Assembly: GCA_951406725.2 (NCBI GenBank)
Contig: OX597834.1
Span: 23,002,001 to 23,066,000, forward strand
DNA from: Octopus vulgaris
Taxonomy: Eukaryota
Reading direction: 5' to 3'
Length of the DNA stretch: 64,000 nt
Positions 26,495 to 37,133 of this stretch are shown here, piece by piece. Positions within the stretch are counted from its first letter, which is position 1; the number at the start of each line of letters is the position of its first letter. The translations under genes were made by a program, and so were the position numbers. The notes beneath the pieces are model-generated. The model had not been told where the DNA came from, searched no databases, and was given only the letters and a program-made list of their open reading frames with translations.

Positions 26495-27746
26495 AAAAGA
26501 AAGAGGCTTAGAGTCGCCATTATGAAAGACTGCTGAATGTGAAGAATGAATGGAAGGAGGAGAGTCTTCCGAATGTTGACCCAGTAGAGGGACCAGCTAT
26601 CCAAATAGACAGCTCCCTAGTAGTTAAAGCAATTAAGGGTATGAAGGCAGGAAAAGCCCCTGGCCCATCAGGAATCACTGCTGAGATGTTTAAAGCATCT
26701 GGTGGTATGGGCTATGGCTTAGTCACCCGCATTGTAAACCAGGTACTACATAAAGAGAGTCATACCCAATGACTGGCGTAGCAGCACCATAGTTAACTGC
26801 TACAAGGGTAAAGGTGATGCTCTAGATAGGAATAACTACAGGGGTATTAAACTGCTGGATCAGGTGATGAAGGTCACAGAGAGGGTCATAGTCCATCTCA
26901 TTAGGGAGAGAGTCTGCTTAGATGAGATGCAGTTTGGTTTTGTTCCGAGTAGAAGCACCACTGATGCCATATTCCTGGTTCAACAACTGCAGGAGAAATA
27001 CCTAGCTAAAGATAAACCCCTCTACTTAGCTTTTGTGGATCTGGAGAAAGCCTTTGACAGGGTTCCCCGACCCCTTATCTTGTGGGCAATGTGGAAACTG
27101 GAGATTGACGAATGGTTGATAAGGGCTGTACAGGCCCTATACAGAGAGGCCGTTAGTAAGGTTAGGATTGGCAACGAGTATAGTGAAGAATTCCGGGTCC
27201 ACCAAGGTTCAGCCCTTAGTCCCCCTTCTATTCATCGTAGTCCTCCAGGCAATAACAGAGGAATTCAAGACGGGTTGCCCCTGGGAGCTCCTCTATGCTG
27301 ATGACCTGGCCCTCATAGCAGAACTAGAAAAGAAATTTCGGGTGTGGAAGCTAGGTTTAGAATCAAAGGGCCTTAGAGTAAATGTAGCAAAGACCAAAGT
27401 TACAGTAAGCAGAAAGGCGAACTCATCACACACTCCCTCGGGCAGGTGGCCCTGCTCGATCTGTAGAAAAGGTGTAGGTAGAAACTCCATAAGATGTACC
27501 CAGTGTAAGCTATGGATGCATAAGAGGTGCAGCAACATCAAAGGAAAATTAACTGAGAAGATAGCTTTCATGTGCAGCAGATGCACAGGGGCAATAGACA
27601 CCACAGATACTCAGAAAACAGATTCCATCACACTCCAGGGGAAGAAACTAGAAGTAGTTGATAGTTTCTGCTACCTAAGTGACCAAGTTAATAGTGGAGG
27701 TGGATGCTCAGAGAATGTCACCACTAGAATACGAATAGCCTGGGAG
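26495..27746 (+). mobile_element. RTE-clade LINE ORF2 fragment (RT plus PHD-like C4HC3 finger)
   Basis: KAPGPSGITAE, LAFVDLEKAFDRVP, LLYADDL, GLRVNVAKTK, CSIC..CTQC..H..C..CSRC. Confidence 0.9.
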
Positions 27747-27779
27747 GGTTTAGCTCCCAATTCCAAAATTGGGAGCTAA

Positions 27780-28748: not shown

Positions 28749-29762
28749 TTACTGTTTGGCATGAGTAATGGTATGAGTGGTTAAGTTCGATTTTTGAGAG
28801 AATGATTTACCACAGACATTGCAGTGATATGGCTTCTCTCCTGTATGAACACGTGTATGTACTCTTAAGTGTCTTCCATCAGAGAATGATTTACCACAGA
28901 TACTGCACTGATATGGCTTCTCTCCAGTATGAATACGTTTGTGAGTAGTTAAGGCACTATTTACAGAGAATGATTTACCACAGATCTCACAGTGATATGG
29001 TTTCTCTCCTGTATGAATACGCCTGTGTGCAGTTAAGGCACTATTTACATAGAATGATTTATCACAGATATCACAGTGATATGGTTTCTCTCCTGTGTGA
29101 AAACGTTTGTGTACTGTTAAATGTCTTCTATCAGAGAATGATTTACCACAAATTTCACAATGATATGGTTTCTCTTCTGTATGAATAAGTATGTGTTGAT
29201 TTAAGTGACTACTTATAATGAATGATTTACCACAGATACTGCAGTGATATGGTTTGTTTCCAGTATGATTACGTTTGTGAATAGTTAATTGATCATTCCT
29301 AGAGAATGATTTACCACAGACATCACAATGGTATGGCTTCTCTCCTGTATGAATCCGTATGTGAAGATTTAAGTGACCACTTAAGGAGAATGATTTACCA
29401 CAGATGCTGCACTGATATGGTTTGTTTCCTGAATGAATATGTTTGTGAGTTGTTAACTGATCACTCCTAGAGAATGATTTACCACAGATATCACAGTGAT
29501 ATGGCTTCTCCCCTGTATGAATACGTATGTGTTTGGTTAAATCATTACTCCTACAGAATGATATACCACAGATGTCACACTTGTGCGGTTTTTCCCCTGT
29601 ATGAATACGTTTGTGACTAGTTAGGTTATATTTTACAGAGAATGTCTTCTTACAGATATCACATTGATATAATGTTTTTTTTCTCTCTTCATTTATGTCA
29701 CCAGGGAAACTAATCTGTTTAGATTGGGTTTCAGACTTGTTCTCATATAATTTCCTTTCCAT
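28749..29762 (-). CDS. C2H2 zinc-finger protein E (11 fingers)
   Basis: ATG-initiated ORF with TGEKP-linked fingers; acceptor AG 30116-30115; donor 30611. Confidence 0.93.
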
Positions 29763-30399
29763 AATTTTCTGATCCTCACCACAATGTACAAATGGTTCTG
29801 TTAGTTTTGGTTTTATATTTTATTCTTAACAAATATTTCTTCTGCTATTATTTCACTCAACTGTGACCCTTGTTGAGATTTGAAGTTACCACAAACTCCT
29901 ATGTAGTGTAAGTTTAATCAAAATATATAAATCATCTTGTACGGTAAAGTAGGAAAATCTTACAGATAATCTGTTATTAGTAATTACTTACTCCAGTAAT
30001 AAAAAAGAGGCTTATATCTGTTCTTCATCACAATTTCAATTTGTCGTTAAAAGATGATATAGATGCTTGGGTGGTGGTGGTGGTGCGCTTTTCGTCGCCA
30101 TGTCATACGATATTCTGAAACAAGAGAAATAGTATAAATTATTAAAAAATATTGTGGAAATAAACGAAAAATAGAAAATGTCAACGTTTTAACCGAAGCC
30201 ATTGATCTACAATACCGTGTCAACAAGGGGCTTGTACAGAAGAAAGTAGGCCCGATGTTATAAATGAAGGTAAATGATGACTAAACAGTGTATTCACCTT
30301 AAGAAATACTTTCTCTTTGAGTTAACATTAAGATATTGGGGGAATAACGATAATTGGAATGCAGAGTGGAAAGGAAAACAAAGTATTCAGACAACAATA

Positions 30400-30730
30400 G
30401 GTAATGTCAGTTAAAGCAAGTTTTTCAGTTCACTATATTACATATGTGACAGCCAACCCGTATGGTGATTAAGACAGCATCGTTACTTGAAGAAAATTCT
30501 TTCTCTTCTTCACTTTCCTTCCTTTATCTTTGAACACATTAAAACAAAAGATGAAGTAGAAAGACACGACCTATATAATGTAGATGTTCTATTAAAAAAA
30601 AAAGAACTTACATATTAATATAGAGCCAATGACGAAGATGTCACGATAGATTCAAATAGTCACAACTCAGACTGGACAATGACAGCTTTAACACAACTTC
30701 TATATTTTACAATAAACCTTCATTTATATC
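30400..30730 (-). promoter_or_regulatory. ZNF-E putative non-coding exon 1 module
   Basis: Conserved module; donor GTAAGT at 30611-30606. Confidence 0.65.
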
Positions 30731-31561
30731 AATATTTCCCCCAAGGGACGGCAACACTACTGGGGTATTGTAGACAATTTCTATCAGAAATAGAGAAATA
30801 AGGGGTGAGAGACGTATCTGTATAGATTTTTTTTTAAGGTTTGTTTCTTATTAAAGTATTAACTTTAAAATGATTTACCCCACAATCACGACAACAATAA
30901 TAACCAGAGTTTGGAGGAAATCCTGATCCGAAGATTTGTGTCATTAATGAAGATAAAGCGGTGTCATCATTAAATAGTTACTTATAGTGCGTGCAATAGT
31001 AATATAGTTCCTTGTGTCAAAATAGTACCCGGAACTAAATTACTCAGCCCTGATATTACGCGGAATCAGAGGCTTTGAAAAAGTTTTAGTAAGGAAAAAG
31101 AGCCAATAGTTAAAAAATTTACAGGACTAACTTGTACTTTCACATTAACATAATCAAGAATGTTTTAGCTATTTCTTTCCACAGTTAATTAGCAACAATC
31201 ATCTCTAATTCAATCACCTTATTGTGAGTTGTAAACAAGATCTGACCCTGTAATAAAGGTGTTTATAAAACAATAAGAGGGAATCAACAGAATTATATAT
31301 AATAATAAGCTCTCAGAATAACTAACTCTCTCTAGATTCAATGTGAGTCTTTAAATATATCCTGGTCTCTTTCATATATTTTATCTTCTAAAGGACGTAG
31401 ATTTACTAACTCTTCCTCCTTGTTATTACCGTCCTCATCGCCAAACAGGGTAATCTTTTATTTTGACTGCCTCAAAACATGCTTTTCCCTGACATTGGTG
31501 ATTATATTTCTACAATTATTTTCATCATTCTTTTCTTGGAAGGAAGACTGTAATGTAACTA

Positions 31562-34036
31562 CATTGATCTTTGTTGATCACGGGTGGCCGTAGAAAAAAA
31601 GATGAATATAAGCGTGTTGAATGAATCGATGACAAATGAATAATAGAATACATCGGAAAAATAGTTTTTCGTTCAGAGACTCCAACGCACCCAAACAGTC
31701 TTTAAACATACATAATAATTTTGTTTCATGGTTGGAATAAAATAATAAAATTTAATTACATACGATCAGTACAAAAGAAAAAATGTAACCGTGAAAAATA
31801 TAACACTTACGGATTCCACTGAGTTAGTGTAATGTAGGAAGGTGTGCTGGAGTTAGACGAGGTTGGGATCGTCATCTTCATCTTCTGTGTTGTCATCGTT
31901 ATTTGTTGGAGCTGATTGTGGTAGAGAGAGAATGCCTGAGAAGTCTGGTTTAGAGTCAGGGTCAATGTTATTGACTTGGATACGAGGTGTAGAAGACCTA
32001 ATAGTGAGAGCTCCATAACGGCTGGATACCGGCTCTTCTTTCTGCGGTGCTGGAGAACCAGAAAAACTGCCAAAGAGAGGAGTTATCATCGACTGCTTAT
32101 TTAATGCCTGTCGTTCCCTATAAATTTCTTTGTAGGGTGCAATGCCACGATCTAGAATGGCAGTTACAGATTCTTTTCTCTCAAAACTTGGATCTGCTTC
32201 CTGTATGAGTTGAGTCAACTGCTCATAGTAGGACATTATTTTTTTTAGGTTTGACATGGTTAATGTTGGACTAGATTCTACACAGTCGCCGTCATCGTCC
32301 TCTGTGCCTATGTCATTTTGTTTTTTGTCGACTAATTCCAACACCTCTGTGTCATTTAATTCTCGCTCAGGAGATTCCATCATATTCCAGATGTCATTTT
32401 CATTGAGGTCTTGAAAACCATCCCCAGGTAATGCTTTTGCCATGTTTAGAACTCGAGTCATGTTATCCTCTTCAAACCCAACGAAGTCTGGAGTTGTGTC
32501 AGGCAATAAGTTGCGCCATCCATTCAAAAGACATCCTTGAGTTACAGCTTGCCAAGCCTTGCCAATGAAGCGAACACCGTGTAGAATGTTGAATCGTTTC
32601 CAGTATTGCCGTACAGTCAGTTCCTCATCGTCCACCAGTGCCTTGTGTATATCCTCAAAGGTATGGTCAAGATAGAAAAGCTTAAATGTGGCCATCACTT
32701 CTTGGTTCATAGGTTGCAGCAATGACTGAGTGTTAGGCGGTAAATAAATCACTTTGATTTCATTCTGAATGTCATTTAAGTTTGTAGAATAGCCAGGACA
32801 ATTGTCTAACACAAGAATTGCTTTAAAAGAAATATTCTTCGTGGCACAGTATTCTTTCACTTCAGCGCGGAAGTGGGTCATGAACCACTCTTCAAAAACC
32901 CCTTTAGTCATCCACCCATTTTTATTAGCACGCCAGTGCACAGGGAGAGTTAACATGCTAATGTTCTGGAAAGGACGAGGCCGGGCAGAACGATGTATAA
33001 GCAGTGGTTTAGCTTTAAAATCACCAGAGCCGTTACAACAGAACAACAGAGACACACGGTCTTTAGCGTCTTTAAAACCCGTCGTCATGGCCTCTTCTTT
33101 CGCTACGTAACTTTTTTCAGGCATCTTTTTCCAATAAAGGGCTGTTTCAACTGCATTAAAAACTTGACACGGTAAATATCCACCCTCATTCATCATTTTA
33201 TAAATTTCTTCAATATAACGCCGAGTTGTCTCTGTATCATCTGATGTTGCATCACCTGAAACAAGTTTGCTGGCTAAATTATATCGTTTAATGAATTTCT
33301 GTACCCACCCACGGCTACCCTGAAAAGTATATTTGTCCTTATCAACAACATCACTAAGCTCAACCAAGCTCTTATATATTTGCTTAGCACGATTCTGGAT
33401 ACGTTTTGTTGACACAGGAAGCCGCTTACTGTAACAGTCCTGCATCCACAAATAAACCCCCTTTTCCATGGGCTGAATAAAAGCATCTTTATGTACTCTG
33501 ACTATTCGATTCACTGATCTAGGGGCAGCATCCGTGAATGCATTCATTATATCTCCACGCACTTTGTAAATGGAACGAATGGTGGATTCATTAACACCAA
33601 ACTCGCGGCCCACACCAGCGAAGCTTGCCCCGTCATATATTTTCTTGATCATCTCCACTTTTTCCTGTAAAGAATACACTCGTCTACGTCGTTTGTTCAG
33701 ATCGGGTGCTTTCGTATTGTTTCTCTTCGTTGGTCCCATGTTCATAGGTTCCTGTATATAAATCCGTATTAAAAAATACACAGCCTCAGAACACGGTCAT
33801 GTAAACACAAGTGATAATCAGTGCATTCTGGGTAGCTGAGCATCAGCGGGATGGTTGCTGGAGGGGAAGGTTGGTTTATTTTATTATTTTTTTGCGGTGC
33901 AAGCAGAATCTTCGACTGATCCCTGACCTGTATTTTCACATATCAGTCCTTGATAAACATAACATGGTTTACAATTAAGCGTGCCGTGTTATCCAGGATG
34001 AGTGTTGAATGAGTCAGTGATGAACGAGGTTGCAAG
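31562..34036 (-). mobile_element. Tigger/pogo DNA transposon footprint (~2.5 kb) with degenerate TIRs between TA dinucleotides
   Basis: TA-CATTGATCTTTGTTGATCAC (31560-) vs reverse complement TA-CTTGCAACCTCGTTCATCAC (-34038), about 15/22 by manual alignment; tandem GTG(T/A)TGAA(T/C)GAG subterminal sites. Confidence 0.55.
31853..33745 (-). CDS. Tigger/pogo-derived (TIGD1/CENP-B-like) protein: HTH-psq, HTH-CENPB, catalytically altered DDE_1 domain, acidic tail
   Basis: Uninterrupted ORF 31853-33781; ATG 33745 or 33739; FGVNESTIRSI, FQGSRGWVQKF, FNAVETALYWKKMP, LDNCPGY, QPMNQEV. Confidence 0.85.
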   Translation of the reverse strand: MNMGPTKRNNTKAPDLNKRRRRVYSLQEKVEMIKKIYDGASFAGVGREFGVNESTIRSIYKVRGDIMNAFTDAAPRSVNRIVRVHKDAFIQPMEKGVYLWMQDCYSKRLPVSTKRIQNRAKQIYKSLVELSDVVDKDKYTFQGSRGWVQKFIKRYNLASKLVSGDATSDDTETTRRYIEEIYKMMNEGGYLPCQVFNAVETALYWKKMPEKSYVAKEEAMTTGFKDAKDRVSLLFCCNGSGDFKAKPLLIHRSARPRPFQNISMLTLPVHWRANKNGWMTKGVFEEWFMTHFRAEVKEYCATKNISFKAILVLDNCPGYSTNLNDIQNEIKVIYLPPNTQSLLQPMNQEVMATFKLFYLDHTFEDIHKALVDDEELTVRQYWKRFNILHGVRFIGKAWQAVTQGCLLNGWRNLLPDTTPDFVGFEEDNMTRVLNMAKALPGDGFQDLNENDIWNMMESPERELNDTEVLELVDKKQNDIGTEDDDGDCVESSPTLTMSNLKKIMSYYEQLTQLIQEADPSFERKESVTAILDRGIAPYKEIYRERQALNKQSMITPLFGSFSGSPAPQKEEPVSSRYGALTIRSSTPRIQVNNIDPDSKPDFSGILSLPQSAPTNNDDNTEDEDDDPNLV

Positions 34037-34199
34037 TATTAATTAGCGCGGATACGTATGGATTTCCATACTTCTGATAACCGGAAGTAGTAAGAGTGAC
34101 TCTAATTTAAATTTTACCAACAACTTGGAGAATTGATCGAGATTTTCTTGTTATTTCTGGGTGAGATGTAGTTTATTATTTGTATTTAGGTAATCCAGT

Positions 34200-34530
34200 A
34201 AATTAGAGATGATTGCTAATTAACTGTGGAAAGAAATAGCTACAACATTCTTTATGTAAAAATCTAAACGAAAGTTTGTTGTAAAATGTAGAAGTGTTGA
34301 AGCTGTCGTTGTCCAAGTTGTGACATCTTCGCCATTGATTCTATATGTAAGTATCATTAATAGTATCAACATTTATAATGTGTCCTTTTTCTGCTTCATC
34401 TATTTGTTTTGATGTGTTCAAAGACAAAGGAAAGAAAATGAAGAAGAGAAGACATTTTACTAAAGTTGCTTTTATCATATGTAATATAGTGAGTTAAAAA
34501 ACTTGCTTTCACTGACATTTCATATTGTTT
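34200..34530 (+). promoter_or_regulatory. ZNF-F putative non-coding exon 1 module
   Basis: GTGACATCTTCGCCATTGATTCTATAT|GTAAGT, donor at 34347. Confidence 0.6.
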
Positions 34531-35849
34531 TTTAAGAATATTCCAAGAATTACACAGAATAATTACTCAAAGGTGTAGTCTTCGGAAATAATCGGTCTGA
34601 TTTGCATTTGATGAAGCTTGTGCACATACATGTGTGCTAGCGGACGTTCGGAAACACGCTTTTGTAAAGGTGTTGTGTCCTCCTTCTGTCTTTCGAAGCT
34701 TTCCAAACACGACCATCATGTCATTTTAAAACGTTCCAATCATGCCCACCCAGTTTGTTTTTGAAAGCGATCCAACCCTCACCATCTCGTCTTTTAACCC
34801 CATATCTCCCTCATGTCTCACTCCGTAGTTTTTGGACGGACTTTCGGCGTTGCTGGCTCTGTTTTGGTCGAGATTTTGCCTATCTTTCCATTTTTTTTTT
34901 GTTCTGGTTTATTTTGTATTTCAAACGTCTCCCCTCCTCCCATCATGTCTATTGACAAACAATCGCCAATAATATGATTTTTTTTGCTATGTTTTGTCAT
35001 TACATTCTGAAACGCATCTAATTTGCATTAAAAAAACAAAACTCCTCGCCTTACTTGATCGTATCTTCAGAAAATGGGTACGTGTGTGTATATATGTGTA
35101 TGTATTTATGTATGTATGTAAACTTTTGGTCTTAAAAAGGAATGGCTATATTAGACGAGTTCCATTCTTCAGGTAAACGTTTCCATCTACCGTTTATCAA
35201 TATAAAAAAAAATGTAGTAATCTTAATTTTATGTATCCTCTGTTTCTTTATATTTCATTCTCTTTTATTTCAGAACATCAGATGACATTGGCATAAAAGA
35301 ATTATTAGTTACTTGAGTTCGTTACTTGGAGACCAAAAATAAATTATGCAGAACAGACTTAATCCTGTTTATATAAGTCTGTTGTAGAATTACTGTGAAA
35401 TATTTGCTGTGAACTGAGATTAACAGTGAAATTTCCCTGTTTCACTGTCTGAAATGAGTGGAAGATGAATTTATATTGTAATTAAAATTGGATAACAAAG
35501 GACTTTGCAACATCTTCAAATATCAACAAAGATCACAGTTGATGGAATTATAGCAGAAGAAATATTTATTTGGAGTGAAATCTAACAATTTAAAGAAAAC
35601 CATCTATAGCAAGTGGAATTTTATTAATGGATGAGCAGGCTTCAGGAGACATCTTCAGAGGAAGAATTTCCATCAAGCATTTTGTTCCATTGGTTCTTGT
35701 TACTGGAAGGGATCCAGCCCGTGTAGATCATGACTGTCAAGTGTCCCCCTGTTGATTTTGAATTGCTGCATTTAGTGGGGATTGAACTCAGAACTTTCGG
35801 GTAATCTTATTGACCTGAAGTATATACTACAGTGAAAGACGAAAACATT

Positions 35850-37133
35850 ATGGAAAATGAATTATATGATAACAAGGTTAAATGTGAAACGGAGTCTGAA
35901 AGTATTGATTTTTCTGATGACGTAAAAAAGGAGAGTAAAAAACCATATCTCTGTGATGTCTGTAAAAAGTCATTTCCTCGTAAAGATAACCTAAATATTC
36001 ACAAACGTATTCATACTGGAGAGAAATCCTATCATTGTAACATCTGTGGTCAGTCATTTTATGCTAGCAGTCACTTAACAAGACACAAGTACACTCATAC
36101 AGGAGAGAAGCCATATCATTGTGATATCTGTGGGAAATCATTCTCTTATGGGACCAGTGCTGTAACTAAACATAAGCGCATTCATACAGGAGAGAAGCCA
36201 TATTACTGTGATATGTGTGGCAAATCATTCTCTGAAAATGGGGCCTTAACTACTCACAGACGTATTCATACAGGAGAGAAACCATATCACTGTGACATCT
36301 GTGGGAAATCATTCTGTCAAAATTATGACTTAACTAAACACAAACATATTCACACAGGTGAAAGGCCATATCACTGTGATATCTGTGGAAAATCATTCTC
36401 TCGAAACGACCACTTGTCTACACACAAGCGCATTCATACAGGGGAGAAGCCACATCACTGTGACATCTGTGATAAATCATTTTCTGATGGAAGTTACTTA
36501 ACTAAACACAAACGTATTCATACAAATGAGAAGCTATATCATTGTGATATCTGTGGTAAATCATTCTGTGTGAGTAGTAACTTAACTAAACACAAATACA
36601 TTCATACAGGAGAGAAGCCATTCTGCTGTGACATCTGTGGTAAATCATTCTCTGGAAGTGTTAACTTGACAAAGCACAAACGTATTCATACAGGAGAGAA
36701 ACCATATCACTGTGATGTCTGTGGTAAATCATTCTCTGGAAGTGGTGACTTGACTAAACACAAACGCATTCATACAGGCGAGAGACCATATCATTGTGAT
36801 ATCTGTGGTAAATCATTCTGCGGCAGTAGTGACTTAACTAAACACATACGCATTCATACAGGAGAGAGGCCATATCAGTGTGATATCTGTGGTAAATCAT
36901 TCTCTAGAACTGGTGATTTAACAAAACACAAACGTATTCATACAGGAGAGAAACCATATCACTGTGATATATGTGGTAAGGCATTTTGTCAGAGTGGTGA
37001 ATTAATTTCTCACAAACGTATTCATACAGGAGAGAAACCGTATCATTGTGATATATGTGATAAATCATTTTCTCAAAATTGTGACCTAGCTAAACACAAA
37101 CGCATTCATAAAAGAGAAGCCATATCGCTGTGA
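35850..37133 (+). CDS. C2H2 zinc-finger protein F (14 fingers; 15th out of frame)
   Basis: ORF 35832-37133; first ATG 35850; acceptor AG 35272-35273. Confidence 0.92.

Follow-up and report, generated by a model that had tools for sequence, protein, structure and literature searches.

A transcribed Tigger transposase gene without two catalytic aspartates in an Octopus vulgaris zinc-finger cluster: a probable domesticated DNA-binding protein

Capture of a transposase by a host transcription unit is known from SETMAR, CSB-PGBD3 and POGZ/POGK. Pogo transposases have been domesticated repeatedly, often with loss of the catalytic triad, according to the accessible text of three papers (PMC7386202, PMC7325037, PMC4231638). 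The vertebrate genes TIGD2-7, JRK, JRKL and CENP-B combine the full CENP-B_N/HTH_Tnp_Tc5/DDE_1 layout with partial triad loss and purifying selection (PMC7386202, same text), and Drosophila CAG and fission-yeast Abp1/Cbh are non-vertebrate pogo domestications as DNA-binding proteins (PMC4231638, same text). For octopuses, the available part of Mukherjee & Moroz 2023 (PMC10027918) claims pogo domestication in the Octopus lineage, and supplementary Table 1 of that paper gives the O. bimaculoides protein XP_014768235 (LOC106867769, 'Ob_67769') as a potentially transposable element (TE)-derived transcription factor. Here we analyse a 64,000-nt stretch of Octopus vulgaris DNA from OX597834.1 (the window, whose positions are used throughout), in which a Tigger/pogo-derived open reading frame (ORF) lies between two C2H2 zinc-finger (ZNF) genes, ZNF E (28749-29819, minus strand) and ZNF F (35814-37133, plus strand). 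The Tigger gene is transcribed, conserved and without two of the three catalytic Asp residues, and it very probably encodes a domesticated host DNA-binding protein; the whole explanation set out below, mechanism included, we consider likely, with somewhat less assurance.

Relative to the vertebrate Tigger genes, the octopus gene has an independent origin, belongs to another Tigger clade (~35% identity to generic Tigger proteins) and is much younger, and it has TA-flanked end remnants and a transcript in common with a C2H2 gene. The octopus gene resembles SETMAR, CSB-PGBD3 and POGZ/POGK in that its transposase ORF is expressed as part of a transcript spliced to a neighbouring host gene; it differs in that the transposase forms the upstream exon, with its stop ahead of the junction. 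The functions of CAG and Abp1/Cbh have genetic or biochemical evidence, whereas the octopus gene is known from sequence comparisons and contigs. Ob_67769 is 95% identical to the window protein and has the same V-D-N triad; it is labelled HTH-Psq in the available text of PMC10027918, whereas the window protein has CENP-B_N, HTH_Tnp_Tc5 and DDE_1, with no Psq family among its five Pfam matches at E<=0.1. That text contains neither 'catalytic' nor 'synteny' (0 occurrences each), and holds, for this gene, no triad analysis, orthologue test, ZNF splice or lobster relative. The word 'octopus' has 0 occurrences in the main text of two Tigger/pogo surveys and of the Gao paper (supplements outside the search), as have 'tigger' and 'pogo' in a 2026 O. 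vulgaris repeat paper. Our literature searches found no paper on the triad, splice or lobster relative of the octopus gene, and the supplements of Tigger/pogo surveys may list the clade. That pogo transposases are domesticated and lose catalytic residues is well established, and this limits the surprise; the features that we have not met in print are the transcript carrying two ORFs, one of them that of a C2H2 gene, and the sister protein in lobster. The host benefit of octopus transposons and a tie between C2H2 expansion and transposon control are open questions in the accessible text of two papers (PMC12988792, PMC12513265). The Tigger gene offers a concrete, testable case of a host-constrained transposon protein that is physically and transcriptionally coupled to a C2H2 cluster. 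It is young enough (tens of millions of years) for the family it came from and its likely binding sites to be recognised still, and it is also a candidate for horizontal transfer between crustaceans and cephalopods.

A dead transposase with conserved DNA-binding domains

The features of the ORF are as follows.

31853..33745, minus strand: Tigger/pogo-derived ORF, 630 amino acids (aa) from the ATG at 33745 or 628 aa from the ATG at 33739, stop TAA at 31855-31853
33545..33691, minus strand: CENP-B_N helix-turn-helix (HTH), aa 17-65 (Pfam PF04218, E 8.5e-9)
33263..33466, minus strand: HTH_Tnp_Tc5, second HTH, aa 92-159 (Pfam PF03221, E 6.5e-12)
32513..33151, minus strand: DDE fold with dead triad, V197 (33151-33149), D312 and N345 (32707-32705)

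A preliminary description of this DNA had claimed an unbroken ORF of ~630 aa with two intact HTH domains and a triad in which V replaces the first D and N the third, and all three points are borne out. The ORF is uninterrupted from either ATG (stop-to-stop frame 31853..33796, minus strand, 647 aa), and its 630-aa form matches P0021 in the protein collection. CENP-B_N, HTH_Tnp_Tc5 and DDE_1 (aa 227-409) all score over the curated Pfam cut-off, in the order of the Tigger/pogo transposase-derived layout, and the strongly conserved columns are kept at 9/9 in the first HTH and 12/17 in the second. The basic KRRRR stretch at the start of CENP-B_N looks likely to be a nuclear signal. In the numbering of the 628-aa form the triad reads V197-D312-N345, encoded at the altered positions by the claimed codons GTT and AAC, and 32 residues separate D312 from N345, as between the second and third triad residues of Tigger. 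Since 137 of 196 distant Tigger-like proteins have D-D-D at these columns, the two Asp losses of the octopus ORF are real; where an autonomous transposon has an intact D-D-D triad, this protein has V-D-N. The AAC codon is of a type that can be recoded by A-to-I (adenosine-to-inosine) editing, which is frequent in octopus, and the contig from public run X1 described below is unchanged there; the first triad position is not so recodable.

The Ser/Pro/acidic tail, also described earlier, is real but is no mark of domestication. It is predicted to be disordered (predicted local distance difference test, pLDDT, <50 over 553-629), and similar acidic tails occur in the lobster protein XP_042203517.1 and in P0175, whose D-D-D triad is intact. 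A CENP-B-like gain of the tail was rejected, as it is found in a D-D-D relative, and judging from these sequences the tail is an inherited trait. Four tail residues are missing from the second O. vulgaris copy of the protein, and a contig of run X10 is identical over the tail region 31925-32245 apart from a 12-base gap. A structure model built from 12 sequences (mean pLDDT 73) resembles the transposase folds of Mos1 and SETMAR/Metnase as well as CENP-B(1-129), with weak whole-chain scores (best E 2.4e-4, template modelling score 0.2); a PDB sequence search with the Tigger protein gave 0 matches at E<=0.001.

Over residues 100-569 the window protein and O. vulgaris CAI9738317.1 do not differ. 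Identity is 95% with a second O. vulgaris protein, CAI9738105.1, as well as with O. bimaculoides XP_014768235.1 / XP_052831396.1, and 87% with Logan protein P0003. A quick-search maximum-likelihood tree of 42 proteins places the window protein with O. vulgaris, followed by the second copy, O. bimaculoides and P0003. Near-identical copies with an intact D-D-D triad had been proposed as the sign of a young element; none was found among the octopus relatives returned by protein searches, every one of which is V-D-N.

Selection was assessed at the protein level and on 350 bases of one O. bimaculoides cDNA given in PMC10027918; an intact coding capacity under functional constraint is among the six criteria for domesticated transposases in the available text of PMC4231638. 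With the genome-wide similarity of 92.4% between O. vulgaris and O. bimaculoides (PMC6472339, available text) as the neutral rate, 2000 simulations at 7.6% divergence gave a mean of 92 differences and a minimum of 67, and kept the frame free of stops in 0.6% of runs; the observed number is 26 of 568 residues, below even the minimum of 28 at 4% divergence. The changes are concentrated outside the DNA-binding region, with one in the first 159 residues and 25 in the rest (Fisher p 0.003). Compared by eye with the O. bimaculoides cDNA, the window differs at ~27 of the first 273 leader bases (~10%), while the 23 codons that follow in the 628-aa frame have three synonymous changes and no replacement; the 630-aa frame has a difference (N/K) at its residue 2. 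Of the 60 changes against P0003, two lie on conserved columns against an expectation of 14.5, with 0/1000 simulations as low; gaps are in frame and there is no stop, and 2-3% of neutral runs are stop-free even without indels. Thus, whereas the preliminary description named a ratio of replacement to synonymous change (dN/dS) near 1 as a sign against a host gene, the proteins have changed far less than neutral evolution would predict (a protein-level result), and by the same protein-level tests the intact coding capacity is under constraint, as in domesticated transposases. Among octopus sequences the HTH region varies at 5/130 positions and DDE at 22/183, the reverse of the comparison with lobster, where there are 42 differences in HTH and 28 in DDE (p 0.0003). 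By these comparisons, constraint is shifted from catalysis to DNA binding. Private changes number 11 in the second O. vulgaris copy and four in the window copy, and the second copy may be relaxing.

A transcript spliced into ZNF E, and the ends of the element

Contigs from four public runs (X1, X3, X10 and X18, two of them DNA runs) were aligned to 29670-35940; they give neither strand, start site nor level, and depth was not used as copy number or expression. None of the listed runs is recorded as RNA. The transcript features are listed here.

31811..34096, minus strand: first exon of the spliced transcript, at least 2286 nt (X1 contig letters 1-2286), with a GTAAGT donor 42 nt past the stop and a 5' end at or beyond 34096
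28749..30114, minus strand: ZNF E coding exon, TTTCAG acceptor at 30115/30114, C2H2 ORF of 337 aa from the ATG at 29762 (X1 contig letters 2287-2728 cover 30114-29670)
31936..32029, minus strand: optional 94-nt GT-AG intron in the tail, used by the O. vulgaris gene model and retained in the X1 contig
34040..34160, no strand assigned: likely host promoter shared head-to-head with ZNF F, with CCGGAAGT at 34081

A 2804-nt X1 contig runs from 34096 to 31811 with one differing letter and then jumps, gap-free, to 30114-29670. The Tigger ORF is the first exon of a transcript spliced into the ZNF E coding exon, and the observed transcript holds two separate ORFs, with no fusion and with the Tigger stop 42 nt ahead of the junction. 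A contig of X3, a run from a second study, stops at the same donor (31811) and continues for 75 more letters, and an X18 DNA-run contig reads through. Absence of expression, which the preliminary description took as a sign against a gene, is therefore not borne out by this GT-AG splice, and expression, a mark of domestication, is indicated by the X1 contig, for libraries whose types are without record. Read by eye, the C-terminus of the O. vulgaris model CAI9738317.1 corresponds to the 31811/30114 junction; in this model the exon downstream is again that of ZNF E, and in O. bimaculoides the model is spliced to a C2H2 peptide. A 15-base ZNF-exon probe had 0 matches in the 350-base O. bimaculoides cDNA, which is uninformative given divergence and line breaks. 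The X3 contigs break between 32657 and 32736, and a call of variants at listed sites (at least 14; six synonymous, eight replacement) was left unused, as copies are mixed.

Tigger transposons have terminal inverted repeats (TIRs) of 8-33 bp and a TA target duplication (PMC9219625). The two putative ends of the element are given below.

34015..34036, minus strand: putative 5' TIR remnant, TA-flanked, 14/22 match to the other end (chance level)
31562..31583, plus strand: putative 3' TIR remnant, TA-flanked

The ends had been described as matching at ~15/22. The poor match stands and both ends are TA-flanked, but the count is 14/22, and at least 14 was reached by 35% of 300 shuffles. As this is within chance, the element ends are not established by sequence alone, and significance of the TIR pair was rejected; with the end match at this level, the loss of TIR hallmarks that goes with domestication is seen. 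The putative 5' end has a 26-nt direct repeat in common with 31614-31639, and a 6-mismatch scan of the window found no look-alike of either end elsewhere with fewer than six mismatches. Host homology on the E side (to the upstream region of ZNF B) continues up to 31523, ~40 nt past the 3' end, and on the F side has begun by 34151, which places the element between the 5' regions of ZNF E and ZNF F.

Since the contigs reach 34096, outside the putative element end and near the CCGGAAGT motif in front of ZNF F, a host promoter beside ZNF F likely drives the Tigger transcript. The CCGGAAGT core at 34081 is also found upstream of two other ZNF paralogues. The CGGAAGT core, which we take to be ETS-like, lies at 34082, 16835 and 9008; in ZNF F, C and A it precedes one and the same conserved block by 55-115 nt, and it is not in ZNF E's own upstream region. 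ZNF E's own 5' region has no X1 cover, a lack that was not used as evidence.

Annotated O. vulgaris copies number two (CAI9738317.1 and CAI9738105.1, on the same chromosome), and no second Tigger copy was found within the 64-kb window. The other aligned contigs are mostly <90% alike: in the two DNA runs, dozens are ~80% alike over 33551-33843 and diverge beyond, and longer contigs are 80-84% alike inside the ORF. The ~80%-alike contigs appear to represent a decayed family, of which the window copy would be the intact member seen. In each DNA run, the alignment of 26-36 contigs breaks off at 33551 and 33843. The loose end at 33551 looks, by eye, like the repeat common to the 5' end and 31614-31639, a likeness that suggests a family of derivatives with internal deletions.

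Proposed function and competing explanations

The dead triad, the presence of the gene in both O. vulgaris and O. bimaculoides, the protein constraint and the spliced contig support the earlier proposal of a domesticated, catalytically dead Tigger gene. The roles suggested along with it, a TE-binding repressor or a regulator of the ZNF cluster, are tentative. In the mechanism we propose, the host promoter by ZNF F would drive a transcript in which the whole Tigger ORF is read, with exit via the donor 42 nt past the stop into the ZNF E exon; in this isoform, the ZNF E coding exon would act as 3' untranslated region. Stops within 50 nt of the last junction escape nonsense-mediated decay, and with its stop 42 nt ahead of the junction this transcript would do so. 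We predict a nuclear protein that contacts DNA via its paired HTH domains, and its likeliest targets would be the ends of its own decayed family scattered through the genome, a binding preference that we put forward tentatively. The inert DDE domain and C-terminal helices might provide a dimer or protein scaffold, and the protein would regulate chromatin or transcription in a sequence-specific way, most likely by damping family elements or genes near them.

Several points weigh against this interpretation. The constraint is estimated from proteins and 350 cDNA bases, and the neutral rate is a genome-wide figure borrowed from the available text of PMC6472339. With the O. bimaculoides pair taken by itself, conserved columns are avoided at borderline significance (p 0.05-0.07), and 3/8 private O. 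bimaculoides changes sit on such columns. Selection tests on the second O. vulgaris copy reach borderline values at best (p 0.05 to 0.28). As to presence in a sister species, which had been named as a check, the gene with its V-D-N triad is there in O. bimaculoides, but the orthologous site is supported only indirectly: an exact look-up of eight neighbouring ZNF proteins for synteny found 0/8. The library type of X1 is without record, and X3 being RNA is a guess. Finally, the 351-nt leader (33746-34096) contains seven short upstream ATGs (frames of 1-24 aa), and thus translation may be weak. Of the six upstream ATGs inside the visible O. bimaculoides cDNA, three are absent there by eye.

Four alternatives, which together remain improbable, have to be weighed. 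The one that survives best, though we think it unlikely, is that the Tigger element has been kept just as a 5' exon giving ZNF E a promoter, with an inert protein whose frame stays open since early stops would trigger mRNA decay. The long contig that reaches the ZNF E exon does pass through the Tigger exon, across E's ancestral 5' region, the stop lies 42 nt from the junction, and the 337-aa frame of ZNF E is intact; stop avoidance, however, cannot account for conserved amino acids, least of all for the near-frozen HTH region. Moreover, a 628-aa upstream ORF is expected to block translation of a downstream frame, here that of the ZNF. Somewhat less probable still is selection for a transposase-zinc-finger fusion of the POGZ/POGK kind, made by alternative tail splicing. 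O. bimaculoides XP_052831396.1 splices from ...KEEP into a C2H2-like peptide and there is a usable donor at 32029, but that model has only about one finger, the O. vulgaris model using the tail intron ends in a short non-ZNF frame, and the X1 contig retains the intron and stops in frame ahead of the junction. No in-frame Tigger-ZNF fusion transcript is in this one full contig, and contigs could miss rare isoforms.

We give marginally less weight again to a unit that is non-autonomous but still mobile, or one that assists the family transposase as a helper subunit, conserved for the element and not for the host. Two V-D-N copies on one O. vulgaris chromosome, TA-flanked ends and a lobster relative that is also without the first Asp would fit. 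On the other hand, the end match is at chance level, protein searches gave no close D-D-D partner, the second copy has the excess of private changes (11 vs four) that a relaxing duplicate would have, and tandem duplication is the norm in this cluster. Least probable is a neutral fossil whose frame survives by chance, because although Gao et al. 2020 treat narrow TIGD1-like clades as pseudogene-like in the available text (PMC7386202) and host-promoter read-through could by itself explain the transcription, 0/2000 neutral simulations came near 26 differences and P0003 carries 60 changes with no stop and in-frame gaps only. The domesticated DNA-binding protein is thus the reading that we prefer.

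The lobster relative and the zinc-finger cluster

The nearest non-octopus protein is Homarus americanus XP_042203517.1 (TIGD1-like), 62% identical over 635 columns and sister to the octopus clade in the quick tree (SH-like approximate likelihood ratio test, SH-aLRT, 100). It shares with the octopus protein the loss of the first Asp and the acidic tail, and differs in its S-D-D triad and crustacean host. Next come P0175 (D-D-D) at ~45% and generic Tigger proteins at ~35-39%, other decapod matches reaching 34-37% over full length; no squid, other mollusc or other decapod protein exceeded 60% in searches of predicted proteins. Horizontal transfer between crustaceans and octopus is the simplest reading of these identities and, in our view, reasonably probable, the alternative being an old, vertically kept gene lost almost everywhere. 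It is doubtful whether a fuller scenario holds as a whole, in which a Tigger transferred between crustaceans and octopus, as prey and predator, was trapped in the shared promoter of two C2H2 genes and took over the 5' end of ZNF E, with the dead-transposase protein, expressed together with the zinc-finger cluster, recognising the ends of its own family, a transposon control arm tamed in parallel in lobster. In lobster, the model KAG7156527.1 (P0239, on the same scaffold as P0004) joins the tail of the lobster Tigger relative to a Harbinger-type (PF13359) nuclease, with the splice at the end of the Tigger ORF; the Tigger part would be the upstream exon of a neighbour gene, as in octopus, and the model may be an annotation artefact.

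The window is a C2H2 zinc-finger gene cluster, as can be seen from its 13 frames of at least 150 aa: nine C2H2 arrays, two overlapping LINE-like (long interspersed nuclear element) reverse transcriptase pieces, the Tigger ORF and one other. According to the preliminary description all other TEs in the window are broken. The ORF list, on which alone this was checked, agrees in so far as the only frames assigned to another TE are the LINE-like pieces, which form a remnant at 26738-27779 with two overlapping frames; one further frame is not placed.

35814..37133, plus strand: ZNF F coding frame from the ORF list, head-to-head partner; contigs ending at 34346 and starting at 35274 fit ZNF F's own 5' exons

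The 5' regions of ZNF E and ZNF F (30255-31523 and 34151-35585) are inverted paralogues, and blocks of them recur at 65-86% identity ahead of most ZNF genes in the window. The same 5' blocks before most of these genes indicate that the cluster grew by duplication of whole units, several of them head-to-head.

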